Virus record (IMG/VR): IMGVR_UViG_3300015263_000969
Location: 1,440-65,439 of that record
DNA: 64,000 nt
Source: a virus
Lineage: Duplodnaviria > Caudoviricetes
Reading direction: 5' to 3' (one strand)
The notes under the pieces were generated by a model that searched no databases, was not told the DNA's origin, and saw only the letters and a list, made by a program, of their open reading frames with translations. The position numbers and the translations under genes are program-made. Positions within the stretch are counted from its first letter, which is position 1. Every line of letters starts with the position of its first letter. Below are positions 8,137 to 64,000 of this stretch, piece by piece.

Positions 8137-9933
8137 ATGACCACCGATAACCCCGACCCGCACGACGGGCCGACGCTCGATCTCAGGCCGGCATCGATGC
8201 TGCCGCCAGAGGACCACAGCGACTGCGCAGAGTGCGACGCGATCGAGGCCGAGCCCGGCCCCCCTGCCGAGATGATCGCTGCCCTGGTGACGGAGGCGCT
8301 CGATCCGTCAACCCCGAGGACGCGGCTCTCGCGCGGCGATGTCGGTGCGTGGATCGCGGGCCTGCCGGCCCACGGCGAGGCCGACACGATGACGGCGCTG
8401 CCTGAGCAGCTAGGCGAGCACGCGCAGCCCCTGCCGACGCCGAGCAGCCCGGCCATCGTCGATCTCGTGCTGGCCCGGATCCTGTCGGCGAAGGCCCGCG
8501 GCGTCATCCAGGCGCGCGACAAGATCGGGGTGTCGCGCTACGGCACGCGTCTCCGTCCCCACAACGGCCGCGACGTCCAGCGCGACTTCACCGACGAGGT
8601 GGCAGATGCGGTGAACTACGCGATGCAGGGTCTCGTGGAGGCTGAGGATGACGCTGCACGAGCAGCGTGGGAGCACCGGTTCGCGATGGCCGTGGCGATG
8701 CTCGAGGAGGCGGTGGGTGAGGCGCCCCGGCGAGCGGGCGGGCTCGTGCTGGCCGGTGACGAGATCGACGCGCTGGCGTCGCTCGACCGCGCCCTGTCTC
8801 GGGAGGCGTACGACGGCAGCATCAGCGATGAGATGAGGCCGCTTCTCGCGCTGATCCCGAGGCTGCTGAATCGGCCCGAGCCCGCCGCCGAACCGGCGCA
8901 GCCGCTCATTCCCGGCTCCACCTGGACCGGTCCCGACGGCACGGTCTACGACGTGGTGCGGCCGGAGGACGTGGGCGACAGGCCGAGGTGGGGGCTTACA
9001 GAGTGTATGGCGAGGATATGTGTCGGCGGTGGTCCCCCCTCCGCCCCCCTCCTCGGCCTGCCAGCGGACGCCGATGACGAGGCGGTGCGGGCGGCGGTGG
9101 AGGGACTGCGCAGCGAGCACGACAGGTGGCGCGGGCTGGCCCTCGCGACGGAGAAGTACGAGCGCGAGCATCACGAGGCACAGGCCAGTTTCATCGCCGA
9201 GGAGTCTGCTCACCTCGAGACACTGGCCACGCTGGCCGAGACCCGCTCCAAGCTCGCCGCCGCTGACCGGGCGTGTGAGGCGAGCGGAACGGCGCTTCGC
9301 AACCTGAGCGCCGCCTACGACTCCCTCCGTGATCGCGTGGTGACCGTTGCCGACGAGGCGTTCGGGCCGTTCCCGGTGCAGACCGCCGAAGAAGCGTTGA
9401 CGGCGATCGAGGGCGGGGTCACCGCGTTGCGCCAGCGCTTCAACGCCGAGGAGGCGGCGCACCTGGAGACGCTGAGCAAGATGAGCGATCTGGCCTCTGC
9501 CAACGCGGCTGTCGCCCGAGACCTCGCCGACATCATCGATGACCACGACGAATCTGACGCTTCCGCCATGCCGATGGCGCGTAAGCTCCTGCGCATCCAG
9601 AGGCTCGTTATGGAGGGCGCGCGCGCAAAGGAGACTGCGGATCGGCAGCGCAAGGCGCAGGCGAGGCGCGTCGTCAAGACGACCAAGGGCGCCAAAACGA
9701 TCGATGCCGACGCGGTGGCCGGAGCCCTGCGCGCGCTCGCCAAGGCGGGCACCAAGAGCGCGACTGCCGCCGAGATCTGCGAGCAGATCGGCTGCTACCG
9801 AAGCGCGCGCGGCTGGAGCAGGCGTGCCATGCGAGGATACAGCCTGGTTGGCCAGATGCTCCAGAAGCTCAAGCGCGACGGCAAGGTCACGCTGCGCGGC
9901 AAGCGATGGGCGCTCACGAGGAGCGGACGATGA
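8137..9933 (+). CDS. Multidomain protein: all-alpha NTP-pyrophosphatase (MazG-like) segment, long coiled coil, C-terminal winged helix
   Basis: IGVSRYGTRLRPHNGRDVQRDFTDEVADAVNY; Ala/Glu helical middle; LQKLKRDGKVTLRGKRW end; AAGGAG RBS. Confidence 0.5.
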   Translation: MTTDNPDPHDGPTLDLRPASMLPPEDHSDCAECDAIEAEPGPPAEMIAALVTEALDPSTPRTRLSRGDVGAWIAGLPAHGEADTMTALPEQLGEHAQPLPTPSSPAIVDLVLARILSAKARGVIQARDKIGVSRYGTRLRPHNGRDVQRDFTDEVADAVNYAMQGLVEAEDDAARAAWEHRFAMAVAMLEEAVGEAPRRAGGLVLAGDEIDALASLDRALSREAYDGSISDEMRPLLALIPRLLNRPEPAAEPAQPLIPGSTWTGPDGTVYDVVRPEDVGDRPRWGLTECMARICVGGGPPSAPLLGLPADADDEAVRAAVEGLRSEHDRWRGLALATEKYEREHHEAQASFIAEESAHLETLATLAETRSKLAAADRACEASGTALRNLSAAYDSLRDRVVTVADEAFGPFPVQTAEEALTAIEGGVTALRQRFNAEEAAHLETLSKMSDLASANAAVARDLADIIDDHDESDASAMPMARKLLRIQRLVMEGARAKETADRQRKAQARRVVKTTKGAKTIDADAVAGALRALAKAGTKSATAAEICEQIGCYRSARGWSRRAMRGYSLVGQMLQKLKRDGKVTLRGKRWALTRSGR

Positions 9934-15874: not shown

Positions 15875-17439
15875 CTAGCGAGAGCCTGGGCACCACCGCC
15901 ATCGATCGCCGATGTGCCTCTCGAGCGCGGTCAGGCACCGATCGCGGTCGCCTGCGAGGCGGTGGATCTCGAGCTGGCGCCTGTACTCGCGCTCGCCGCG
16001 CTCGAGCAGTTCCTGCACAGTGCAGCCGGCTGCAACTGCCTTCCTCTCGAGCATGGCCCGTCGGTAGATGGCGAGACGCTCGGATGCGGTCATCGGCCGT
16101 GACCATGCCGGGCGTTCCAGGCGGCGGCACAGCGGGCGCGGGCCTTCGCCCGCGTATCGAACGCCGGCGGGATCGCGCGGGAGAGCGCCGTCAGGCACGC
16201 CGCGGCTGTGCCATCGTTCCAGTTGCGCGATATCGCAAGAAGCTCGCGGATCTGATCGTCGGTGATCGTGTCGGCGGTGACCTTCACGACGCCACCTCGC
16301 ACATCTCCAGAAGATCCCGTAGCAGGTCGATGCGCTCCGGCCCGCACACGATCGGTCGGTCCGAGCATGCCTCCCGGAGCATCTTGCGCAGCATCTCGAT
16401 CTGCGGCTCCGGGAGGTCGCGAAGGCGGCGGATCTGAAGCTCCAGCGCCATCGAGAGCGCATCCTCTCTGGTCACGTCAGCCCCGACCATGAGCCTCGTC
16501 GGCCGCTCCAGCGTGATTCGGATGCTCTCCAGGACCGCGCCCGACAGGCGTTTCATGGGGCAGCCTCCGCAAGCGCAAGAATCCGGGTCGCCACGGTCTT
16601 GGCCGACGTGGACTCCATGGCCTTGCGAACCTTCCCGATGAACCATTCGATCGACTCGATCTGAATGCCGGACCCGGCGGCCTCGAGTACGGAGATCAGC
16701 GCCCACTGCTCCACAGATCCCGGATCGACACCGCACTTGGCCGCCACCAACTGCTCCACCGCGCGAGCATAGACCTCGTGATGGACCAGCACCGACCGCT
16801 CTCCGAGCACCCGCTCACGGCGAGCCTGGCGGCGCACGGCATCGTGGATCCTGGCGCGCGTCCACTTTCCGCGAAGCCGCGATTGCAGCGCGTGATACGC
16901 CTCGTGAGCAGCGTCACGAACGTCCGACGCGTCGGATCCGCGAGCGCGAACTGCCGCGATAACAGCGCTGGCCTTCACAGCACCACCTCCGCCCCGCGCA
17001 GCCTGACCATCGCCGCGTCGAGACGCCGCTGCAACTCACTCGCGCGGCGCCGCTCGTAGTCGAGCATGCCCTGGAGGCACTGCGCACGCGCCTCGGCATC
17101 GCTCGGGTGTGACGGGACGATCGGTGCCGGCGGCTCCGTGTCGTACACGATGTGCACGGGGAGCAGTTCGGCCGGCAGGATCGGAGCGCCGGGGTGGTCC
17201 TCGCAGCCGTCAGCATCGTAGGCGATCTCGGAGCCGCAGACCTGACAGAGATCGACGTGGCGGGTCTCGATCCCGGCCTGCCCGAGGCACGTCTCGCAGG
17301 TCACCCGGGCGAGGTCTCCGGTCGCCCCACCGGAGCGAGTCTGCACCTGGTGCTCGGAGACACCGCACATGTGGAGGCCATCGGCGGTGAGGTGGTGCAC
17401 GGCGGAGCGGCTGGTTCGGCTGTGGGTCCGTCGGGTCAT
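15875..17439 (-). CDS. Operon of small hypothetical genes (16975-17439, 16553-16978, 16284-16556, 16090-16287, 15875-16093)
   Basis: Coupled stop/start overlaps; driven by the promoter at 17446-17473. Confidence 0.6.
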
Positions 17440-29748: not shown

Positions 29749-30714
29749 GTGTCTATTGATAGCAACGTACCTCGCAAACGTCAAGCATGAATCTGAGGTA
29801 CGCGAGAAGTGAGGCTAACTACGCGCAACATCCGGCGATCCGGCGAGCCTTCGGGTCACACCCGACGAGGCCGCACGCGGTTTCGCAGTCCCGGTGCTCG
29901 TCGTCGGGGTCGGTGCAACCGTCGGCGGCCAACCCAGCACCGGCCTCGCGCCGGCCGGCCTCGATGCTCCGCCGATTTACGTATGCCTGCCAGCATCCGA
30001 TCGACGGCGCCCACCGGAACCCGCAGCCCTTGAGCCGCTCGCACGTCTCCGCGTCGGGCTTGCCCGGGAAGAACAGCCGCACCCGGTTGTCGGCCTGGCT
30101 AACCTCGAGCCACGCGCGCTCTCCTTGGATCGTCTCGTCGGGCGCAGCCTTGGCGGCGCCAACGGCCTCGATGCGGGCGCGGATCCGGCGGATGTTCGCG
30201 CCGTTGTTCTTGAGCTCGAAGTCCGCGAACCCGATTCGGCCGGCGAAATCCGGCGCGAGCAGATCGCGGGCGACGCGCTCCGGGAGACCGAGGGCGGCAA
30301 GTGCGGCCACCGGCTTTGCCTCTAAAGTGCCAGTTGCCTCAATAGTCCTCAGCGCTGCCTCAAAAGGTCGCGGGAGTGACCTGGCCGCGGTTCTCCGACG
30401 AGGATCGAGCCGCGCGCGTTCCGCTTCCCACTGTCGGACTGACCGAGTAGCGTAATCGGCTCACGCGCCACTGGCACTTTCGCCACGGCGCAAGCGGCCC
30501 GACCGGTGCGTCAACACCGGCCGAGCCTAGGAGCCACGATGCGTAGAGCACATCGTAACCCCCGGCAGAGGCTACAGAAGTCCCGCACCACCTACCACCC
30601 CTCCATCGACGTCATCCTGGACGTCCTGCGCCGGATGGACCGCCGGCAGGCCATGCGCCTGATCGAGGCCGTCGCTGCGCTGGTGAGCGCCACGGCGAAG
30701 GGAGGGCGGTAGCC

Positions 30715-31497
30715 ATGCTCGACGAGACCGCCCTGCGCGCCTACCTCGAGCGCATCCTCGGCTGGTCTGCCGGGCAGGCAGCGGCCGTCGAGAGCGCGCT
30801 CGGGGCGCTCCGGCTGGCCCTCCTCCACGGCGTGACCATCGTCCTCCTCGGGGAGTCGGACCTGGCGCCCATCGCCCGCGAGCTGCACCGGCGGGCGTTC
30901 GGCGCGGGCCAGCCCTTCGTCGTCGCGGACCCGCGGCGCGGCGACGTGCCGGCCACCGCCCGGACGCCCGCGAGCCGGGCCACCGGGCTCGGCGCCCTCC
31001 ACGCGGCCCGGGGCGGCACCCTCGCCCTGCGCCTGCGGCGCCTGCCCGAGGACGTCTCGATGACGATCGGCCTGGCGCGCGAGCCCGGGGCCGACGTGCG
31101 CGTGATGCTCCTCGGGGACTCGCGGCGCGACCGGCACCCGTTCGTGAGCCCGGCGCCGATCATGGTCCCCTCGCTGGACACGCGCGCCGACGAGCTGGGG
31201 CGCATCGTCGACGAGTACGCGGCTGACGCTACGCGGGCGCTCGGCGTGGGGCCGGAGCGCTTCACCGCCTCCGATCGCGCCTGGGTCCTCCAGCACGCGG
31301 CCGAGAGCCTGCCCGTCATCGAAGCGGCGACCCAGCGGCTCGTCGCCCTGAACATGTCGCGGACCACCGACGAAGCCTCCGCCGCCCTCGGCCTCCGCGG
31401 GTCCACGCTCCGGCGCTGGCGGATCCAGCGCATCCGGCGCAGCAAGGGCGGCGGCGGCGTGCGGAGCGCCGGGCGCTGGATGCGGAGGGCGTCGTGA
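30715..31497 (+). CDS. Degenerate sigma54-activator-like AAA protein with C-terminal Fis-type HTH
   Basis: IVLLGESD..IARELH...QPFVVAD...AARGGTLAL...ASAALGLRGSTLRRW; no GKE Walker A or GAFTGA. Confidence 0.6.
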   Translation: MLDETALRAYLERILGWSAGQAAAVESALGALRLALLHGVTIVLLGESDLAPIARELHRRAFGAGQPFVVADPRRGDVPATARTPASRATGLGALHAARGGTLALRLRRLPEDVSMTIGLAREPGADVRVMLLGDSRRDRHPFVSPAPIMVPSLDTRADELGRIVDEYAADATRALGVGPERFTASDRAWVLQHAAESLPVIEAATQRLVALNMSRTTDEASAALGLRGSTLRRWRIQRIRRSKGGGGVRSAGRWMRRAS

Positions 31498-31817
31498 ACG
31501 AGCGCGCTCGCGAGTTCTGCGCCGCCATGACCCGGTGGCTCGACGCATGCGGCTCGGGCGTGGTCCGCTCGGTGAGCGTCCAACGCGTCGGCACCTGGAC
31601 CGTCATCAAGGTCGGCGCCACGAGCGACGAGACCGCGCGGCTCATCGCGGCCGAGATGGGGCTCACCCAGGCGCGCACGCCGCAGAAGGGCCGCGTCTGG
31701 TGGAGGGAGTACGTCGCCACCACCGAGGGCGCCACGATCCTCGTTGCCGGGCCGACGCACAGCTTCGAGGAGCCGGAGGACTGGCCGGGGCGGCGAGTGG
31801 GGACGTTTCCGAGCTAA
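31494..31817 (+). CDS. Hypothetical transposon passenger protein
   Basis: GTGA-coupled to the upstream gene; 107 aa. Confidence 0.55.
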   Translation: MNERAREFCAAMTRWLDACGSGVVRSVSVQRVGTWTVIKVGATSDETARLIAAEMGLTQARTPQKGRVWWREYVATTEGATILVAGPTHSFEEPEDWPGRRVGTFPS

Positions 31818-31891
31818 AACGAAGAACGGCGCGCTCGTCGTCGCGGCCAGGTCGGTGCATGACGTCGGTGCTGCTCGCTGCCGATCTGGTT

Positions 31892-32044
31892 CTGCACCAC
31901 CTGCGGAGCTTGGCTCGGCCTGCACCTGCTGCGCACTCCGGTTGTACCTGCATGTACTGCATGTTGGAGGTGGTCCTGCACCTCCTGCGGATGTCGCTTG
32001 ATCCTGCACGTCCTGCCGTGTAATGTTCCTCCTGCACCTCCTGC
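31892..32044 (+). repeat. Six CTGCA-N4-CTGC repeats, exact 28-bp period, unique spacers
   Basis: Starts at 31892, 31920, 31948, 31976, 32004, 32032. Confidence 0.92.
31998..32026 (+). promoter_or_regulatory. sigma70-type promoter embedded in the 28-bp array
   Basis: TTGATC-N17-TAATGT; repeat 5 lies in the spacer; AGGAG RBS directly after repeat 6. Confidence 0.6.
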
Positions 32045-32056
32045 AGGAGTTACCGA

Positions 32057-33100
32057 ATGTCGACAGGTTTGCAAAAGATCATGGATACTTACGATCGCGT
32101 AATCGAAGAGGGGCACGTTCAGGACAAGGGGCAGGGGTTCCGGTCCTATGCGATCTCCAACCTCCGCGGCGGCGTGGGCAAGTCGTCAATCGCCTTCAAC
32201 CTGGCGTACGAGGTCTCTCGCACGAACTCGCTGCTCACGGCAGATGTCTGCCCTCAGACGAACTTCACCGAGATGCTACTCGGTGGCTACAAGACGACGG
32301 CGAACATCTACGACGCGCTGAAGCCGGTCATCCTCGGACCGGCCTTCGGCGAGGAGCCGGAGGATATCTCCTACCGGATCAGCCAGCACTGTGATCCGTT
32401 CAAGGGCGGACGGGCCGCGTTCGCGATCCCCGGCAACGCGGAGCTGTTCGCCTTCCCGTCGACGCTCTACGCGCAGCTCGACAAGGCGTGGGGAATGAAC
32501 AACCGGACCGCGGTTGCCAAGCTCCTCCGCGGTCTGAAACAGATCCTGGACAGGGAAGCCAAGGACAAGGACGTGAGAGCCGAGAAGATCTTGATCGACA
32601 CTTCGCCCTTCTATGCCGGAGGCACGCATCTCGCGTGGTGTGCCGTCGAAGCGCTCATCGTGCCCGTGCGCGTCGACGAGCATTCGGTCGAGTCGCTGGG
32701 CCTCCTCTTCAAGATGCTCTCGGACCCGGAACGCGACTTCCTGCAGTGGAACGAACGGGCCGGTGACCTGCCAGGCCCGAAGATCGCCGCGATCGTGATG
32801 ACGATGGTCGGCGCGAAGAACCAGAGAAAGAACACGCCAGACCGCGCCTCCACCATGTACATCGAGCGCGCCCTCGAACTGGCGGAGGCGCACGCGGATC
32901 TCTTTGCGGTGGATCCCAGCGATGCCTTCGTGATCACCGACGACTTCCATTCGGCGGGCCGCATCAGCGGCGCGAAGCGGAAACCGATCTCGATGCTGGA
33001 GGTCGGCAGCTTTCATACCGTCGAGAACAGGCGCTTGCAGGTGAACCGCTCGGTGACGAGGTACCAGAAGGAGCTGCAGTACCTCGCCAGCGTGATCTGA
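32057..33100 (+). CDS. parA: ParA/Soj-family ATPase
   Basis: ISNLRGGVGKSS deviant Walker A, ADVCPQTN, ILIDTSP. Confidence 0.85.
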   Translation: MSTGLQKIMDTYDRVIEEGHVQDKGQGFRSYAISNLRGGVGKSSIAFNLAYEVSRTNSLLTADVCPQTNFTEMLLGGYKTTANIYDALKPVILGPAFGEEPEDISYRISQHCDPFKGGRAAFAIPGNAELFAFPSTLYAQLDKAWGMNNRTAVAKLLRGLKQILDREAKDKDVRAEKILIDTSPFYAGGTHLAWCAVEALIVPVRVDEHSVESLGLLFKMLSDPERDFLQWNERAGDLPGPKIAAIVMTMVGAKNQRKNTPDRASTMYIERALELAEAHADLFAVDPSDAFVITDDFHSAGRISGAKRKPISMLEVGSFHTVENRRLQVNRSVTRYQKELQYLASVI

Positions 33101-33127
33101 TCTCCCTTCACGAGAGGAATCGCCACC

Positions 33128-34393
33128 ATGGACGCTGCTCTCGACGCTCGCCATCAGCGCGCTCTTGCTCTCGTCGCCAGCAAGCGCGCCAGCATCAAGC
33201 ACATGGCGGGCGCGCGGTGGCTGGTCCCGTCGCAGTCCAGCGCGAGCGGCGGCTACGTCGTCGATGCAGACGCGAACACGTGCTCCTGCCCGGACCACGA
33301 GGAGCGGGGCGTGCGCTGCAAGCATATCTGGACCGTGGCCATCATCCGGCAGGAGATCTCCATGCCCGACGGGTCGGTCGTGATGACCGAGACCACGGTC
33401 GCCGCGGCGGTCACCGCGACGGTTACCACGCCGCCCCGCGTCACCTACAAGCAGGCGTGGCCGGCGTACAACCGCGCCCAGGCCGAGGAGGGCGCGCGCG
33501 TCCAGCTTCTCCTACGCGCGCTCTGCGATGGGATCGTCGAGCCCCCGCAGGCGAAGGGCCGGCCCCGTCTGCCGCTCGCTGACGTCGTCTACAGCGCCAC
33601 GATGCAGGTGTTCGGCGGCATGAGCGGGCGCCGGTCCACGAGCGACACGCGCGCGCTGGCCGAGCGGGGTCTCGTGCGGCGGGCGCCGAGCTACAACTCC
33701 ACGTTCCGCTACCTCGCGGGCGCCGAGCTGGCGCCGCTCCTCAAGACGCTGGTCCACGAGGCGGCGGCCCCGCTCCGGGCCGTGGAGACCACGTTCGCGA
33801 CCGACTCCACCGGGTTCGCCATGAACACCTACGCGCGCTGGTTCGACGAGAAGCACGGGGGCGAGAAGCGGTGCCAGCGCTGGATCAAGCTCCACGCGCA
33901 GGTGGGCACGGTGACGAACGTGATCGCGTCCGTCGAGGCGACCGAGAGCAACGTGGGGGACGTCGTGATGCTCGCCCCGCTCCTCGCGTCTGCGGTGGAG
34001 CGCGGGTTCACCGTGCGCGAGCTGAGCGCCGACAAGGCGTACCTCGCGAACGACGTGCTCACGGCCATCGAGGCCGCGGGCGCGGTCCCTTACATCCCCC
34101 TGAATGCCAACAGCCGGCCGACGGGCAAGAGCGCGGCGTGGCGCCGCCTGTACCACATGTTCGAGGCGCGGAACGACGAGTTCCTGGCTCACTACCACCG
34201 GCGCTCGAACGCCGAGAGCACGTTCAGCATGGTCAAGCGCAAGTTCGGCCCATCGGTGCGCGCCAAGACCCCGCCCGCGCAGATCAACGAGGTGCTGCTC
34301 AAGTGCATCTGCCACAACCTCTCCGTCCTCGTGCACGCGATCCACGAGTTGGGGATCGAGCCCTCCTTCTGGTCGCGCCTGGAGGCCGCGTAG
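33128..34393 (+). CDS. DDE transposase (IS5/IS903-like) with N-terminal SWIM zinc finger
   Basis: CSCPD...CKH SWIM; FATDSTGF, WIKLH, LSADKAY, YHRRSNAESTFSMVKRKFG. Confidence 0.9.
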   Translation: MDAALDARHQRALALVASKRASIKHMAGARWLVPSQSSASGGYVVDADANTCSCPDHEERGVRCKHIWTVAIIRQEISMPDGSVVMTETTVAAAVTATVTTPPRVTYKQAWPAYNRAQAEEGARVQLLLRALCDGIVEPPQAKGRPRLPLADVVYSATMQVFGGMSGRRSTSDTRALAERGLVRRAPSYNSTFRYLAGAELAPLLKTLVHEAAAPLRAVETTFATDSTGFAMNTYARWFDEKHGGEKRCQRWIKLHAQVGTVTNVIASVEATESNVGDVVMLAPLLASAVERGFTVRELSADKAYLANDVLTAIEAAGAVPYIPLNANSRPTGKSAAWRRLYHMFEARNDEFLAHYHRRSNAESTFSMVKRKFGPSVRAKTPPAQINEVLLKCICHNLSVLVHAIHELGIEPSFWSRLEAA

Positions 34394-34395
34394 CG

Positions 34396-34692
34396 ATGCC
34401 CCGTCGTGACCTGTCCCTCGACGAGCAAGCGAACGTCCTCGCGGCCCTGCGCATGCTGCGCGTCAAGCTCGGCGGAGCCAACTGGCTCAACGTGGAGCGC
34501 GCGCTTCCCATCGCGCACAGCACGCTCGCCGAGATCCTCGCCGGGCGCTCCGAGGTGAGCGCCGCCGTGGCGTTCCGCGTTGCCAAGGTGCTCGACGTGT
34601 CCCTCTACCACGTGCTCTCGGGCGAGGCGCTGGGGGACGTCTGCAAGCACTGCGGACGGTCTGCGTCCGAGCCATCATCGCGGATGGGCTGA
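34396..34692 (+). CDS. XRE-like HTH regulator with C-terminal CxxC
   Basis: LPIAHSTLAEILAGRSEVSAAVAFRVAKVLDVS...CKHCG. Confidence 0.7.
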   Translation: MPRRDLSLDEQANVLAALRMLRVKLGGANWLNVERALPIAHSTLAEILAGRSEVSAAVAFRVAKVLDVSLYHVLSGEALGDVCKHCGRSASEPSSRMG

Positions 34693-35482
34693 GCGCTGCT
34701 CTCGCCTGCGCCGCTCGTACCGCTCTCGCATCGCGATGAGCCACGCGGGCACCGGCGGCGGGGGCGACGGCGGGTCGCGATACGGGTCGGCCACCGAAAG
34801 ATGATGCCCGGGCCGATCCCGGGCCGATCCCAACGCTGCCTCAAAAGTCGGGCCGCTGCCTCAAAAGTCGGCGCTCCGACGGGGTTCTGAGGCAAAGCCA
34901 CGGCCACCTGCGCATCGGCACCGGCTCGGGCATGCTTGCGGATCGCGGCGTTCGCGGCCGTCATCTGCGCTTGCTTCGCCTCTGCCACGGCGAGATTGGC
35001 GCGCAGCCGCTTGACCGCGTCCGCATCGCCGGACATGATCGGGCGCAGCTCCGGGCACAGTGTCTTGCGGATCGCGTCGAGCGCGCGCTCGCGGTACTCA
35101 AGCAGGTCTTTCGTGCATCTGTCAGCCGCCACGCCGCGCTTCGCCTGGCGACGCGCCGGAAAGTTGCTCGGCCCGGCGATCACGGTCGACATCGTGCGCG
35201 ACTTGGCGCCGAGCATCGCGACGTAGCGCTCCCGGTAGCCGGCGCGGTAGCGCGCAAACTCGGTCTCCAGCGTCGCACGCTTCTCGTCGGTGTTCGCCAG
35301 CTTGGCGAGCGTGTCGCGGTCGCGCGAAAGCGTGCTCGCGTAGCTGGCGAGCTCCTGATCGGCGCGCTGCTCAGGGACGAACGAGGCTCCGGCGTGTGCG
35401 GCACGAGCGAGATCGAGCGGGATGTCGTCGGCGAAGTTGTGCATGGTGGTCCTCCGTGATGAATGGTTGCGGGCTGCTGGGT

Positions 35483-57886: not shown

Positions 57887-59382
57887 TTACCTGTCTACGA
57901 TCGGCCTGGTGCGCCCCGCCAACACCCCCCTCGCTTCCCGCAGCGCTGCCTGATCCTCTGGGGCCATATACCCGCCGGTCTCGGTGATGATGCGCTCGAG
58001 CTTGGCCAGGCTGGCAAGCGCGCGATGCGCATTGCCGGCTGGGCCGCCCACGAGGCCGCAAGCACTGCATCGCCACCATGGCGCGTGCTCCATCGCCGCG
58101 GTGCGCGCGAGACACGCGTCGCCGAGGCGGTCGCCTTCTGCGGCGAGTTCCGCCGCCTGACACCCCGCGCACGCCACATCGACCGGGCCGACAGTGCCGC
58201 AGCGGGCGCACTCCTCGCGCATCTCGGCCCGAGACGGCTCGCCGATGCGCGTCGCGCGCGGTACGGTGCAGGCGTCAGCCATAGTAGCGATCCTCGCCGT
58301 CGACGAAGAACTCCGATCCATCCTCGATGGCCCGGCACATCGCGGCATCGAGCATGTCGGTCAGCAGCGAAGACCCGTCCTCGCGTTCGTCGAGCATCGC
58401 GCGTCTGACGTCGACGGAAAACCCGCGCGCCTTAGAGATCGAAAACCGCTCCTCAGGTCGCGCCACAACCTCAACGGCGAGTCTCTCATGACGATGCACC
58501 TCCCAAGCGCGCGGCATCGCGCATGCCAGCGTGTCGACGCCGATCTCGATGCGCAGAACGCCGTCGCGCGTAACCGTGCAAGTCAGCGGCCTATGCCGCG
58601 GCTTCTTTCTCTTGCTCATCACCCTCTCGCTTCCTCGCCGCTCGGAGCGGCGGTTGGGGTCGGTTCGCATCCATCGCCACCGCACCGCGAGCAGTGGCCG
58701 CCTCCGAGGCAACCGAGACACCATGCCGCAGCCCACGGGCAGTCGGGCAGATGTTGTTCAGGCGCGACGTCTCCGCACTTGCAGAGGAGCGACGGGTGCA
58801 GTGGGTCGGCGGTGTGCCAGTCATTGGTTGACGATTGGCCGTCGCGATTCGGTGCAGCCACACCCTGCTCGTACACATCGTCGTACGGGCCGCCGTAAAC
58901 CTTGACCATCTTGGGCCGGTCGCCGGTTACCACTTTGATGGCCAAGCGCATAGCCTGACGCAGGTGCCAGCGAATACGGAGCAGGTGCGACCGGCGGCTC
59001 ACCGCGCACCTCGCCTTCCGTACACGCGCTCGTGCCTTTCGCGGATGGCTCCGACCGTGGCGCTCGCGATCTTGGCGCTACGTCGCCGCTGTTCGCGCAT
59101 CGCCTCGCGCAATGCACGGTCACGGCGCCCCGTGGCCTCGCTCGCGCCTAGGCAGATGCGATCGTTCACGGCTCGCTCGAAGGCATCGCGGATATCGCCC
59201 ATGCGATCCTGCATTTCGCGTCTAACGAGGCTGTCGATCTGATCCCAGATGAGATGGCGATGCCGCTTGCACATCGTGATTGCGATGTCGGCGAGCGTTC
59301 CGGTCACTGGCAGTTCCTGCGCTTTTCCCATCTCCTCACCATATCCATCCTCGTATGGGATTCCACTGAGATTGGCTGTCAT
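57887..59382 (-). CDS. Small hypothetical genes (57887-58282, 58275-58619, 58619-59002, 58999-59382)
   Basis: Coupled ORFs; several CxxC motifs. Confidence 0.55.
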
Positions 59383-60275
59383 GACACCGCCGTTAGCAGA
59401 TCCATCTGCTCCCTCGCGTGCGACCTGGCCCGTCGCGGCGCTGGCGTACCTACGATGATCACCTCGTCAACCTTGCCCCGCTTCGCCCCCTTGCTGCTCA
59501 CCGTACCCGGCCGCTGCACCACATCGATGCGCGCCCAGTTGTAGATCTGCCGCACGAGCGGCGTGTCGCTGTTCGACAGCAGGACGTTAACCCCGCGCTC
59601 CACGAGCGAGCGTGCCAGCTCGGCCAGCGAGCGCTGGTCATCCGACCCGAACCCGCCGGCGGTGTAGCTCGTGAAGCTCGCCGTCGTGCTCGCGGGTACG
59701 TACGGAGGATCGAAGTACACGAGGTCGCCGGGCTCAGCGTCGGCCACGGCGGAGGCGTAGGAGCCGCAGCGGATCTCGGCGCGCTCGAGGGCGGCGGACG
59801 CGGTTCGCAGGTTGTCGATGTCGAAGTCCATCGCGTTGAGCGAGCCATCGGCACGCCGACCGAGCGGCGCGTTCATCTCGCCCTTGGAGTTCACGCGCCA
59901 CAGTCCGTTGAAGCAGGCGCGGTTCAGGTAGAGGAACATCGCGGCCCGCTCGAACGGCCGCGGCGGGTGAGTCTCGCGCTCGTCGTTCCACCGCGCCCTG
60001 ATGCGCGCGTAGTGGCCCTCGTCATGGTACGCCGCGAGTAGCTGAGACTCACGGATCACCGCCTCCACGTCGACCGCGAGCGCCCGATACATCCCGATCA
60101 GGTCCGCGTTCAGGTCGTTCAGCACGGCGCGCTCGGGCGCGAGCCAGAAGAACAGCGCGGCGCCGCCGGCGAACGGCTCGTAGTAGCGGCCGTACGTGGC
60201 AGGCAGGCGCGCGAGCAGCTCGGGCAGGAGCTTCGTCTTGCCGCCGACCCACTTGACGATCGGGCGTGCGGTCAC
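59379..60275 (-). CDS. dam: DNA adenine methyltransferase (Dam/D12 class)
   Basis: KWVGGK, YEPFAGG, YLNRACFNGLWRVN, VYFDPPY, LLSNS. Confidence 0.92.
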   Translation of the reverse strand: MTARPIVKWVGGKTKLLPELLARLPATYGRYYEPFAGGAALFFWLAPERAVLNDLNADLIGMYRALAVDVEAVIRESQLLAAYHDEGHYARIRARWNDERETHPPRPFERAAMFLYLNRACFNGLWRVNSKGEMNAPLGRRADGSLNAMDFDIDNLRTASAALERAEIRCGSYASAVADAEPGDLVYFDPPYVPASTTASFTSYTAGGFGSDDQRSLAELARSLVERGVNVLLSNSDTPLVRQIYNWARIDVVQRPGTVSSKGAKRGKVDEVIIVGTPAPRRARSHAREQMDLLTAVS

Positions 60276-61432
60276 GACGGTGTCCATCCTGTGCGAAGCA
60301 TCGCTTCCGCTTCGGCACACGAGATGCGGTAGCGCTCCTCGTCGGTCACCCTGCCTCGAAGTTGCTCGGCCGCATAGAGTCGCGCGCCCAGAGCAAGAGA
60401 CCACGTAGCGCCGATTCCAAGTTCCACATGCGCGTCTGCTAGCGAGCATGGTGTGCTCGCTGCCAGCGCGCAGATGCGCGCAGCCTGTTCGCGTGTACGC
60501 TTGCTGATCTTGCTGCGACTCATCATGCGCCTGCTCCTGGCTCGTACTCGGTGAATGCGACGTGGAAGTACGGCAGGCTCGTCCACTGTCTCGGACGGCG
60601 GCCACTGATCCGGCTGTCCTGGTAGCGGTACCAGATTGTCGTGTGCGCCGCATCCGGTCCGCCACGGATCTCCTCGACGACGCACACGCGGCTCGTCCTG
60701 CGGTTCTGGTAGCGGTCGCCCTTGGCTGGTCGCTTCATCGCTCGGGCTCCCCGCATACTAAACAGGTCTGAGCCCAAGCGACGCGCCGAAGTCGAAGTGC
60801 GTGAGCGGTCGTTGCCTTTCGCGTTCTCCCACGCTCGCGCCGCGCTCGCCGCCACCAGCCCGGCGAAGCTCGCGCGATCCTCGACGCTCACATCCATATC
60901 CCCGGTGTGCACCCACACGGGATCGAACTGGCCGTTATCGTCAGGCGAGTTCAGGCGGCGGTCACTGGCCCAAGCGACGCCGAGGTGCTTCGCCTTGATC
61001 TTCTGCTCGCGTGTCAACATGAGCCCTCCTTGACCACCTGCTCGCTCTCCTCGCTCGTCATCGCTTCCCCCGTCGCGTGCGCCAGCGCTTGCGGTTGAGC
61101 ATCCTCGCCATGTCGGCGGCCATCGCCTTCGTGGAGCACCGAGCGACGATGCTGTAGGTGCTCCCTGTTTCCATCACATGCACCTCAACCCCATCGGCGA
61201 ACGCCTCTCCCTTGCGCACGCCGCGAGGCGGGTTGGCCGTCCAGCCCCAGCCGAGGTTCCTCACCTCCCACCTCCCATCCCCAGACATCGCTGGTAGCCT
61301 TCAGCTCGCCCAGGAACGCGTTTCGCTGCCCTGGCGCCGTGCACGCTGACCCCGGCTGTCGAGCGCGCTACGGGCTCATGGGCGATGGTCTGAGCGGCCA
61401 TAAGCAAACATCGTGCCGATCGGATGCTGTAG

Positions 61433-61700
61433 CCGTCACCGCCGTCACCACCGGATCCGGAGACTTCCGGAAAAACATCCGACACTGTTTTGCTCCTTAC
61501 TATTATTCTTCTTCTCTGAGAGAGAGAGAGAGAGTAGTGGTGACGGCGGTGACGGTGCCGGATGGTTACCTGATTACGCAAGGTTACTGCCGTCACCGTT
61601 CCCCGTCACCAAGTTCAGATGTCACCAGATCGAATCGGTGACGCCTCACGTAGACCCAGACGCGAGGCGTGCCGTCCCTGGTGACGGTTTGGCTCGATGT
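61433..61700. repeat. Probable replication origin: GTCACC/GGTGAC iterons, 19-bp perfect inverted repeat, AT-rich and (GA)n core
   Basis: CCGTCACCGCCGTCACCAC 61433-61451 vs its reverse complement 61537-61555; (GA)8G 61518-61534; more copies run into the 3' end of the primase gene. Confidence 0.65.
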
Positions 61701-63743
61701 GACGGCCGATGTGACGGCGCGCTTGCCGATTCGGCGCTGCACCCGCTCCCACCCGAGCTCGCCCAGGATGCGCGCAACACGCGCCTTCGCGCGCAGGTCC
61801 TGGTGCGGCGTCTCGACCTTCAGAACCGTATTCAGCAGGTCTGCGCACGACACCTCGGACACGTTCGGGTGGGAGATCCAGTCGGCGATCGGCTGCGTCC
61901 AGGGGTCATCCTCTGCGAACTCGCGGTTCGCCTCCTCGCGCTCGCGGTCCGCATCGCCAGCCAGCCACCACGACTCGCCGGCCTCGGCCGCGCACAGCGC
62001 CTCGGCCCAGAGCTGATCGCGCATCTCAGCGAGCAGCTCGCGCGGGATCGGCCGGCAGACCCGGATCACGTGGTAGCGGCGGCTTCCGGTGTCGTCCGTG
62101 AGGAACTGCCGGAGGTTTGTGGTCCCGCAGATGACGCACGAGCGCGGCTTCTTGATCGCCGCGCGCTGGTACGGCGGGCGGAACGTGTCGTGGCTCGAGG
62201 ACATCCACGCCTTCGTGCGGCTGTTGGCCTTGCCGGTGAAGACGTTCTCGAGCTCGGCGAACTCGTAGATCCACGCGGCATGGAGCTGGAGGATCGAATC
62301 CTTGTTCGTGATGTCGATGAAGCTGTCGACGAACCACTCGCCGCCGAGGATCGAGAAGAACGTCGACTTGAACAGGCCCTGATCGCCCTGGAGCATCAGC
62401 GCCGTGTCGAGCTTGCAGCCCGGCCACAGCACGCGCGCCGCGGCGCCGATCATGAACTTCCGCACCATGTCGGCGTGGAGCTCGCCGTCGGAGCCGAGAT
62501 AATCGCGCGCCATGCTCGCGAGGCGCGGCACGCCGTCCCAGTCGAGGCCGCGGAGGTACTGCAAGATCGGATGGAACGGCCGATCTTCGCAGCTCTTGAC
62601 GATCGCGGCTTCGACATCGGCCGGCGATGGGGTGTACCCGAGGCGCGCGCCGGCGTGGGCGCGGATGTCGTGGACGAGCGACGCCGGGACCGGACGCCCA
62701 TTGAAGTGCGGCGTCTCCGCGCGCATGTCCATCGACCAGCGGCCGCGGTAGTCGGGGAAGTAGCGGACGAAGACCAGCGTGTTGTGGAAGTCCTTCCTGA
62801 CCGATCTGTCCTTCTTCAGGAGCAGCATCGACATCCAGTTCTCTGGCTCGCCGCTCGGGGCGGCGGGGGGCGGCGGGGCTGCGCTCGATGCGACGAACGG
62901 CGCCCGGTCCTGGAGCAGGTAGCCGCGCTCGCGCGTGCATCGCTCGGCGACCGAGGAGAGCTTGTGCTCGATCTCGCGCTCGGACCACGGCGGGTCACAG
63001 CGCGGGTTGTACTCGTCGACGATGAGCCTGCGGGTCTCCTCGATCGTAAGGTCGAACCCGAGCATCACTGCGGCGACGGCGTTCCATGTCGTCGTGTGCC
63101 CGGACGCGCCGCTGATCGCCGCCGGCAGCTTCGCGAGGTAGCGCGAGGCGCGCGCGACGCGGTCAACGGGGCGCTGCGCGGGCGCCGGGACGCTGCGCAG
63201 CTTCGGCGGCTCGACGACCAGCGCCAGGATCGCGTCGGGGTCGATCGGCGCGCCGGTCAGCCGCTCGCCGCGCCAGGTACCGGCCGGCGCGCTTGGGTCG
63301 TACCAGAACCGCGAGGCGTCCTTGGTCTGCTGGTCGACCGGGCACGGGCTGCGCGTCGCGCCCCACTGCCAGATCCTGGCATACTCGTCCTTGCTCACTG
63401 CGCGCGCGAGCGGCAACACGACTCGGAGCCGGTGGCACACGTCGGTGTGGCCCTTCGTGGTGTAGATCGCGCCCATCGACGAGGCCCACGCCGTGTGGAT
63501 CGCGTCCCAGGTCGCGTCCTTGTCGTAGTCGAGGACGAGCGCCTGCACGAGGCGAACGTTGTCCTTGAGCCGCCTCGGCGGGTCGAAGATTGCCGGGCTC
63601 CACCCGGCGTGGTTCATCTGGCCGCGGAATCTGTCGGCCGGCTCGGCGACGAGCCAGTCGAGCCACTGGTCCCACGTGGTCTCGATCCGCTCGACAACGT
63701 CGGTCTGCGGAAGCGAGGCGAACTTGGCGATGCTCACCTGCAC
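61593..63743 (-). CDS. Primase-helicase (prim-pol-like N-terminus, VirE/VapE-type ATPase)
   Basis: LVLDYD, YTTKGH, RLRVVLPL; WDGVPRL, PGCKLD, GDQGLFKST, ICGTTN...FLTDDTGSRRY. Confidence 0.9.
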   Translation of the reverse strand: MQVSIAKFASLPQTDVVERIETTWDQWLDWLVAEPADRFRGQMNHAGWSPAIFDPPRRLKDNVRLVQALVLDYDKDATWDAIHTAWASSMGAIYTTKGHTDVCHRLRVVLPLARAVSKDEYARIWQWGATRSPCPVDQQTKDASRFWYDPSAPAGTWRGERLTGAPIDPDAILALVVEPPKLRSVPAPAQRPVDRVARASRYLAKLPAAISGASGHTTTWNAVAAVMLGFDLTIEETRRLIVDEYNPRCDPPWSEREIEHKLSSVAERCTRERGYLLQDRAPFVASSAAPPPPAAPSGEPENWMSMLLLKKDRSVRKDFHNTLVFVRYFPDYRGRWSMDMRAETPHFNGRPVPASLVHDIRAHAGARLGYTPSPADVEAAIVKSCEDRPFHPILQYLRGLDWDGVPRLASMARDYLGSDGELHADMVRKFMIGAAARVLWPGCKLDTALMLQGDQGLFKSTFFSILGGEWFVDSFIDITNKDSILQLHAAWIYEFAELENVFTGKANSRTKAWMSSSHDTFRPPYQRAAIKKPRSCVICGTTNLRQFLTDDTGSRRYHVIRVCRPIPRELLAEMRDQLWAEALCAAEAGESWWLAGDADREREEANREFAEDDPWTQPIADWISHPNVSEVSCADLLNTVLKVETPHQDLRAKARVARILGELGWERVQRRIGKRAVTSAVTSSQTVTRDGTPRVWVYVRRHRFDLVTSELGDGER

Positions 63744-64000
63744 GGCTCGGCCTCTATGCCGCGCAGCCACGCGCGCGCGTCATCGACGGACCGCAGCACG
63801 ACGTAGACGCCGCCCTTGCGCTCGACGAGCTGCTGGAACGTGCGCTGCTCCGGGCTCTGGCGACCCGTCGGCGTCTTGATCTCGATCGCGACGAACCGAC
63901 CACGGAAGATGCCGATCAGGTCGGCGCCGCCGGGCGTGCCGACGCCGTAGGCCACCCAGAACTTGCCCATCTTCGTCCGGCCGCAGTTGTTACGCCAGAG
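63734..64000 (-). CDS. VRR-NUC nuclease (5' truncated)
   Basis: WRNNCG...GGADLIG...FVAIEIKTPTGRQSPEQ. Confidence 0.88.
   Translation of the reverse strand, partial: LWRNNCGRTKMGKFWVAYGVGTPGGADLIGIFRGRFVAIEIKTPTGRQSPEQRTFQQLVERKGGVYVVLRSVDDARAWLRGIEAEPCR

Follow-up and report, generated by a model that had tools for sequence, protein, structure and literature searches.

Insertion sequences of the IS903 type are minimal and move other genes only as composites. Transporter insertion sequences hold one transposase and its passengers within a single pair of inverted repeats, and cargo is usually an exception among bare insertion sequences. The ends of Tn7 and phage Mu each bear several transposase-binding sites, with an unlike left and right layout and with polarity, and these elements use retroviral-integrase-type transposases together with helper ATPases. 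In Mutator-like elements (MULEs), the SWIM domain follows a catalytic domain of the Mutator type. Here we analysed a 64,000-nucleotide stretch of a tailed-phage record (IMG/VR IMGVR_UViG_3300015263_000969, Caudoviricetes; hereafter the window), in which a conserved phage gene is interrupted by a 4,588-bp element. The element proper, as read directly from the sequence, occupies positions 30312-34899 and carries one transposase, with an N-terminal SWIM finger and a DDE core. It is very probably a unit (non-composite) DDE transposon of a broad IS903-related family (hereafter the SWIM-DDE family), for which no description was found.

The element is real and is inserted in a conserved phage gene. 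Around it the window codes for a large terminase, a portal, a major head protein and tail proteins, as well as for a primase/helicase, a DNA methyltransferase and an endolysin-like protein, in agreement with the earlier proposal that a phage gene had been hit, and show that the phage is a tailed one. When the element and one copy of its target duplication were excised computationally, the flanks joined into a single minus-strand frame of 342 codons without any stop, from an ATG at 35444 to the stop at 29819-29821. A protein database was searched with the N-terminal fragment for longer proteins, which gave 137 matches, 120 of them listed. The listed homologues are 318-810+ amino acids (aa) long, mostly 318-540 aa, and all 120 full-length proteins match both halves of the gene. 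In 88 of these 120, the stretches matched by the two halves share exactly two residues of the homologue, and precisely this overlap is predicted by a 9-bp duplication. The excised form aligns without gaps over the junction with many homologues (e.g., P0122, P0130 and P0133), and both halves are colinear on one PHROG profile, phrog_19458 (Table 1).

A preliminary description of this stretch, made from the letters alone, had anticipated the restoration of the gene but named the restored frame DUF3560-like. The restoration stood and the label did not, since neither gene fragment matches DUF3560 and three intact homologues do so only below threshold (E 0.003-0.32). Uninterrupted alleles, which were also to be looked for, were found as intact homologues in the protein database search; phage records gave weak matches only, and a scan of viral contigs returned one relative with 41% identity. 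The intact gene halves only suggest that the insertion is recent, as had been proposed, and the two copies of the duplication already differ at 1/9 positions. As for the boundaries, the element is delimited by 11-bp terminal inverted repeats, GGCTTTGCCTC on the left and its exact reverse complement on the right, flanked by a 9-bp duplication with one mismatch. The repeats and the duplication had been reported correctly, and the mobile element with them, though the span of 30304-34908 given for it started inside the left duplication copy and ended with the right one.

The transposase has its zinc finger near the N-terminus (ligands C52, C54, C64 and H66; Pfam SWIM at residues 43-72), followed by the catalytic triad D226, D302 and E363. 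In an alignment of 20 family members with 38-77% identity, C52, C54 and H66 were invariant, C64 was kept in 19/20, and the triad was invariant in 20/20, in keeping with a DDE_Tnp_1 core. The presence of a single DDE transposase with a SWIM finger was thereby borne out, with matches to both PF01609 and PF04434. Residues 111-390 align with residues 26-301 of the IS903 transposase (26% identity, E 2e-15), with matching motifs in the DDE region. The AlphaFold model (pLDDT 82) comprises a folded N-terminal domain (residues 1-76), a disordered linker (77-107) and the catalytic body; its best global superposition is with the Tn5 transposase (TMq 0.41-0.42), and a sequence search of the PDB with the transposase profile gave 0 matches. 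The protein family is large: of 8,000 candidates that were scored, 3,555 reach E<=1e-3. The nearest ones (70-81% identity), where a name is given, bear the label Kofleriaceae.

MuDR and other Mutator-like elements likewise combine a SWIM zinc finger with a DDE transposase. A Mutator-like (MULE/IS256) identity was ruled out by the PF01609 core, the N-terminal position of the SWIM finger and the fold match of the model to ISCth4, with a TM of only 0.25-0.31. In the full-text literature, the search for SWIM papers returned plant MULE/FAR1 work only.

To delimit relatives, loci with homologous transposases were collected from viral contigs (4 loci) and one-genome-per-species contigs (46 loci). As labelled, the family spreads over Myxococcota, Planctomycetota, Acidobacteriota, Fibrobacterota, a Saccharimonadales genome, archaea and viral contigs. 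Of seven loci close to the window copy, four contain an entire element, which has the same ends and a 9-bp duplication (Table 1). For 30 more distant transposase genes, an unbiased search of the longest inverted repeats placed a GGCTTTG-type pair in the top four for 20. The 25 elements tabulated at this point (19 distant ones, the window, the four close relatives and L055) show a duplication of at least 8/9 in 22 cases, with 9/9 in 21 of the 24 others than the window. Targeted searches at 13 remaining loci contributed L017 (8/9), L018, L032 and L027 (9/9 each). This gave a total of 29 delimited elements of 3,086-9,283 bp, at 36-78% transposase identity and with a duplication in 26/29; their ends start with GGCTTTG in 26, GACTTTG in 2 and TGCTTTG in 1.

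None of the 29 delimited elements is a bare insertion sequence: every one of them bears an additional 1.8-8 kb of DNA, and at least about 0.9 kb separates the left end from the start of the transposase, as estimated by hand from coordinates. The transposase is the sole gene common to all 24 clustered elements. Elsewhere in the family, the cargo includes Eco57I-type and Dam-type DNA methylases, SDH-type proteases, P63C proteins, a Panacea-domain antitoxin, an M78 peptidase, a phosphoribosyltransferase, an AAA_14/DUF4143 ATPase, RHH proteins and nested insertion sequences. It had been considered that homologous transposases might use different, closer ends. They use the same distant ones, and in the window there is no room for closer ends, since gaps of only 27 bp (from the parA stop to the transposase ATG) and 2 bp (from the transposase stop to the xre ATG) flank the transposase gene in a tight gene string.

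The ends of these elements are composed of several sites and differ from each other. The 11-mer that occupies positions 6-16 at the left end is repeated, without change of orientation, at +24 and +44 (+54/55 in some elements). At the right end it is found at -63 and -43 in the left-end orientation and at -16 inverted, within the terminal repeat. The 4,268-bp interior of the window element contains 0 copies of the end motif. Sites were then called at <=3/11 mismatches in 24 elements, with 4,800 interior 22-nt segments as controls. Site L2 was present in 16/24, L3 in 18/24, R3 in 19/24, R2 in 18/24 and R1 in 23/24, and only 1.0% of the 4,800 interior controls reached the same threshold. The motif varies by clade (TGCCTCAAAAG here; TGCAACGGAAT, TGCCCAATAAC and TGCACAAAAAC elsewhere) with its positions kept. 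A clade-specific motif at fixed positions is the pattern expected of binding sites co-evolving with their protein. Because the transposase gene always reads from the end with three direct sites toward the other end, the element is polar. When IS903 was treated in the same way as a control, two terminal sites only were detected and the extra sites were absent. With their multiple predicted sites per end, arranged differently on the left and on the right, these elements resemble Tn7 and Mu, from which they differ by an IS4/IS5-type transposase and by the lack of a conserved helper gene.

How the family relates to IS903 itself can now be stated. Common to the window element and the IS903 group of the IS5 family (IS903, IS102 and IS602) are the termini GGCTTTG(T/C), the 9-bp target duplication, the DDE triad and a DDE_Tnp_1 core, which spans nearly the whole IS903 transposase, with the shared motifs DSTG, SAD(K/G)AY and Y-x-RRS-x-AE. 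In contrast, IS903 has one open reading frame (ORF) and a single 18-bp inverted repeat per end, whereas SWIM-DDE elements measure 3.1-9.3 kb, have three sites per end in an asymmetric layout and encode a transposase with about 110 additional N-terminal residues bearing the SWIM finger. The size of about 1 kb with a single gene, the simple ends and the curated transposase score of the IS903 group are thus all lacking. One account (PMC12670165) gives IS903 a length of 1,057 bp and a 9-bp target duplication, reports that it forms cointegrates and adjacent deletions, and places the passenger of Tn903 between two IS903 copies. The window element shares with Tn903 the carriage of passenger genes by IS903-type chemistry. 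A composite transposon of the Tn903 type was ruled out, with one transposase and one match of the element in the 65-kb record.

The preliminary description had taken the element for an IS903-like transporter insertion sequence. On that reading, an ordinary member of the IS903 group would have picked up genes from its neighbourhood in recent times. Such a one-off capture would agree with the GGCTTTG ends and the 9-bp duplication, both like those of IS903 (PMC12670165), and with the IS903-type model NF033579 being the best NCBIfam model in 7/7 members tested. Yet the scores lie below the cutoff of 140 bits (125.8 here and 90-135 in 5 relatives, as against 353 for IS903). Moreover, cargo is present in all 29 delimited elements, over several phyla and at 36-78% transposase identity, with no bare member such as transporter insertion sequences would lead one to expect; the SWIM domain is found in all and multi-site ends in most relatives, and IS903 has neither. 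We therefore consider a one-off capture highly improbable. The likeness in termini and duplication stands, and the identity as a cargo-capturing IS903 does not: the family is distinct from the IS903 group, set apart by its cargo, its multi-site ends and its sub-cutoff score.

The terminal repeats were examined separately against chance. In 100 first-order Markov simulations of the window, we looked for an 11-bp inverted pair, 1-10 kb apart, with at least 8/9 matching flanking 9-mers, and at least one qualifying pair occurred in 21/100. The real window also contains a second 11-bp inverted pair (9518-9528 / 17308-17318, GAGACCTCGCC, 7.8 kb apart, 8/9 flanks), which lacks transposon-like ends and encloses nothing transposon-like; we take it as a product of chance. 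These figures, together with the full stretch being present only in the probable source sample, would suit a block that is no transposon, either a phage moron region between fortuitous repeats or an assembly chimera. However, the repeats lie exactly at the break of a conserved gene, which excision restores, and the same ends and site layout surround homologous transposases in 28 other loci. In addition, the independent Logan assembly of the probable source run contains a 16,069-bp contig covering 29300-34580 and a 25,626-bp contig covering 34551-35900, both with 0 differences. Both junctions are thus bridged by separately assembled contigs, which removes the earlier concern that they might not be spanned. 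An origin by chance or chimerism is therefore scarcely credible. The repeats by themselves are weak evidence and it is the family evidence that decides the transposon status; since the repeats alone are not compelling, the identification as a transposon rests on gene restoration and on the family.

Besides this chance level, several observations weigh against the identification of the element as a transposon of such a family. The duplication is imperfect, with GCGGCCACC and ACGGCCACC matching at 8/9 positions. The element matched only once in the 65,439-bp IMG/VR record, of which the window is nearly the whole, and no transposition event was observed. The empty-site joint (30311-34909) was not seen in the Logan contigs, which drop rare variants. 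Three of the 29 delimited elements (L004, L020 and L055) have no duplication. The delimitation itself looked for GGCTTTG-like ends and left about 10 loci undelimited, mostly on cut contigs: ends were not set for L010, L012, L022, L031, L035, L037 and L039 (cut contigs or no convincing pair), and those placed for L019 (6/9 duplication) and L030 (5/9) are uncertain. The XRE and NtrC-like genes of the window element are confined to one clade, and for this reason are not essential to the mechanism of the family. That the 11-mers are sites for the SWIM domain is something we infer. Finally, no SWIM finger paired with a prokaryotic IS5/IS903-type transposase was met in the full-text literature, a scope with ISfinder outside it. 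The same literature contained no description of SWIM-DDE unit transposons of this kind.

Coordinates of all features are given in Table 1.

Table 1. Features of the window element, of the interrupted gene and of complete close relatives (window positions, or length for the relatives)
Feature	Position or length	Strand	Basis or remark
C-terminal half of interrupted phage gene (includes left duplication copy)	29819-30311	-	phrog_6744 1.3e-27; phrog_19458 6e-24, profile 179-295; 120/120 listed intact homologues
Left copy of 9-bp target duplication, GCGGCCACC	30303-30311	.	flanking 9-mer
Left terminal inverted repeat, GGCTTTGCCTC	30312-30322	+	read from sequence
Sites L1, L2, L3 (TGCCTC[T/A]A[A/T]AG)	start 30317, 30335, 30356; span 30317-30366	+	same-orientation 11-mers
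Small ORF, 57 aa from ATG (68 aa from GTG at 30506)	30539-30712	+	GC3 0.82; DNA similarity in L055
NtrC/bEBP-like protein, 260 aa, degenerate AAA+ without Walker A, C-terminal HTH	30715-31497	+	profile and Foldseek
107-aa ORF overlapping stop of preceding gene	31494-31817	+	GC3 0.94; homologue in L008
Six iterons, CCTGCACCTCCTGC-like, 28-bp period, ending 11 bp before parA ATG	31891-32046	+	repeat analysis
ParA-like P-loop ATPase, 347 aa	32057-33100	+	PF13614 3.6e-11; PF01656; phrog_164 ParA-like partition protein 1.5e-35
Transposase, 421 aa, SWIM + DDE_Tnp_1	33128-34393	+	PF01609 2.3e-17; PF04434 1.2e-5
XRE-type HTH protein, 98 aa	34396-34692	+	PF01381 9.4e-5, just under cutoff; conserved in relatives
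Subterminal sites R3, R2 (TGCCTCAAAAG)	start 34837, 34857; span 34837-34867	+	orientation as left-end sites
Site R1	34884-34894	inverted	part of right terminal repeat
Right terminal inverted repeat, + strand reads GAGGCAAAGCC	34889-34899	-	read from sequence
Right copy of 9-bp target duplication, ACGGCCACC	34900-34908	.	flanking 9-mer
N-terminal half of interrupted phage gene	34900-35444	-	phrog_19458 7.5e-11, profile 79-176; 137 longer homologues, 120 listed
L007	5,851 bp		complete close-relative element
L008	7,225 bp		complete close-relative element
L009	4,848 bp		complete close-relative element
L011	5,379 bp		complete close-relative element

Six ORFs, all on the plus strand, lie inside the element: the transposase and five others, where at least four passengers had been counted earlier. 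The G+C content at third codon positions (GC3) is 0.82-0.97 in the five scored ORFs, which supports coding; xre was left out of this scoring and is taken as a gene because it is conserved in relatives. The small ORF at 30539-30712 has no Pfam, NCBIfam, PADLOC or PHROG match, and the 107-aa ORF finds unnamed clusters only in the ESM Atlas. Since PADLOC recognised none of the 10 element proteins tested, the cargo was not called defence. In a promoter and terminator scan, the single promoter-like site fell within parA, and sequences resembling terminators were about as frequent as expected by chance. A perfect 11-bp tandem repeat (CCCGGGCCGAT, 2.3 copies, 34807-34831) lies immediately inward of the right-end sites, and a GC-rich hairpin at 34806-34824 resembles a terminator when read on the minus strand.

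No Pfam family matches the 260-aa protein. A profile built from it and seven relatives matches the NtrC-type regulator 5m7n (E 2.4e-4), and its AlphaFold model (pLDDT 76) gives VpsR, DmpR, NtrC1 and FleQ as top Foldseek hits (probability 1.0, TM 0.38-0.47). Of the NtrC-family features, the AAA+ fold and a C-terminal helix-turn-helix (HTH) of the Fis type are present. By contrast, the P-loop position is occupied in the alignment by GESDLAP or GDDDLVP, not by the Walker A motif GxxGxGK, and a GAFTGA loop occurs nowhere in the 260-aa sequence. Since the P-loop is replaced and the GAFTGA loop is lacking, we read the protein as a putative ATPase-dead DNA-binding regulator. This protein family is sizeable (629 representative clusters at E<=1e-3) and is without a Pfam model; many of its members have an N-terminal extension of 110-130 aa, with an FHA domain in P0244.

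The window copy belongs to a Kofleriaceae/Haliangiales clade, in which an XRE gene always follows the transposase and an NtrC-like gene is usually present. The XRE gene is the next gene after the transposase in L007-L012 and L044 (55-77% identity), and the NtrC-like gene is found in L007, L008, L009 and L011, inverted in three of them.

The ParA-like protein is peculiar to this copy: no ParA homologue was found in the 50 related loci or in the closest relative, L055. A signature Lys is expected in the ParA P-loop at the position where an Arg stands here, in RGGVGKS. Of the components of a type I partition locus, a Walker-type ParA ATPase and repeated sites beside parA (the six iterons) are present. 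For a centromere-binding partner (ParB/ParG), the neighbouring small ORFs gave no family match, and the gene after parA is the transposase. We read the ParA gene and the iterons as a candidate partition or autoregulation cassette, which would be a passenger. Alternatively, the whole could be a plasmid-like or satellite-like element, maintained outside the chromosome by ParA and iterons and using the transposase only for integration. In favour of this, six iterons ahead of a ParA-like ATPase recall type Ib partition loci, and parA is directly upstream of the transposase. Against such a lifestyle, family scans (Pfam, NCBIfam and PHROG) revealed no replication initiator, ParB or centromere-binding homologue, ParA is absent from the relatives, and a circle joint (34899 to 30312) was not seen in Logan contigs, which cannot prove absence. 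A plasmid-like or satellite-like element is thus very improbable, and the ParA-iteron unit is best considered as cargo of a transposon.

For SWIM-DDE elements in general, a mechanism can be proposed. The transposase would bind three 11-mer sites per end, most likely via its N-terminal SWIM-containing domain, and would pair two unlike ends. Its DDE core would cut at the GG termini and the ends would be joined to target DNA cut with a 9-bp stagger. All DNA between the left and right sites, except the transposase, would be exchangeable cargo. As a guess from position and fold, the XRE regulator of the clade probably represses the transposase and the ATPase-dead NtrC-like protein is probably a second regulator.

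Several relatives show particular arrangements. In L055 (1439-6262 of a metagenome contig), the left end of the element agrees with that of the window over 34 bases without a difference, although its transposase gene is only 79% identical. The element lies in a different flank and has no target duplication; a 383-aa gene takes the place of parA, and most of the 260-aa ORF has no blastn match. In overlapping loci of one contig, L025 (4132-12236, 8,105 bp) and L034 (1334-10616, 9,283 bp), two head-to-tail elements are separated by exactly 9 bp, CGCCAGGCC, and the same 9-mer stands at both outer ends, making three copies. This suggests an insertion beside an existing copy or a tandem-forming event. 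L021 (2938-8952, 6,015 bp) has TGCTTTG ends, a 9/9 duplication and two oppositely oriented transposase genes; at its left end the sites have the inverted pattern, as though one element had been nested in or fused with another. In L020 (6454-8381), a perfect 18-bp inverted repeat, AAATCGAAGAACTTGCCG, brackets the transposase gene inside the element, whose own GGCTTTG ends are without a duplication.

As regards distribution, the whole stretch is present in one run only, its probable source, a marine sediment metagenome. Within the XRE gene the independent assembly of this run is interrupted, the contigs on either side sharing 30 bases (34551-34580), and short contigs with 6-15 differences map to 34572-34692; together these hint at other family members in the same sample. 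In the freshwater run X2, only short contigs were found, with about 2-14% of positions differing from the window. Portions of the 260-aa ORF, of the transposase and of the XRE gene are represented among them, and parA is not. This shows that a close relative of the element is present in other places. Runs X3 and X4 contained next to nothing of the stretch. When the whole element was compared with 50,697 phage records, the sole match was to a Ralstonia phage, in a ParA gene, at 66% identity over 10% of the query. In the phage part of the window, the DNA methyltransferase (59382-60665, minus strand, phrog_56 1.5e-75) belongs to the same module as the primase/helicase (61596-63770), and a scan of 20 phage ORFs, which was not exhaustive, revealed no integrase. 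The resident prophage earlier proposed as the probable target is accordingly only one possibility beside a free phage.

It is possible, with a chance that we put slightly short of even, that SWIM-DDE elements constitute an undescribed, phylogenetically broad and obligately cargo-carrying family of the IS4/IS5 superfamily. Such a family would have asymmetric three-site ends in the manner of Tn7 and Mu, co-varying with the transposase and working without a helper ATPase, and would move methylases, toxin-antitoxin-like genes, regulators and partition genes between chromosomes and phages. A widespread lineage related to IS903 shows a different cargo-transport route within the same transposase superfamily, with several kb of passengers always on board, polar multi-site ends and a zinc-finger transposase. 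It also offers a compact single-protein system whose putative binding sites are defined and open to direct testing. For the phage, the transposon has remodelled the genome: one conserved gene was knocked out, and a partition-type ATPase and three putative regulators were gained. If the broader reading above is true, delivery of a ParA-iteron cassette into the phage could change how the phage is maintained in its host.

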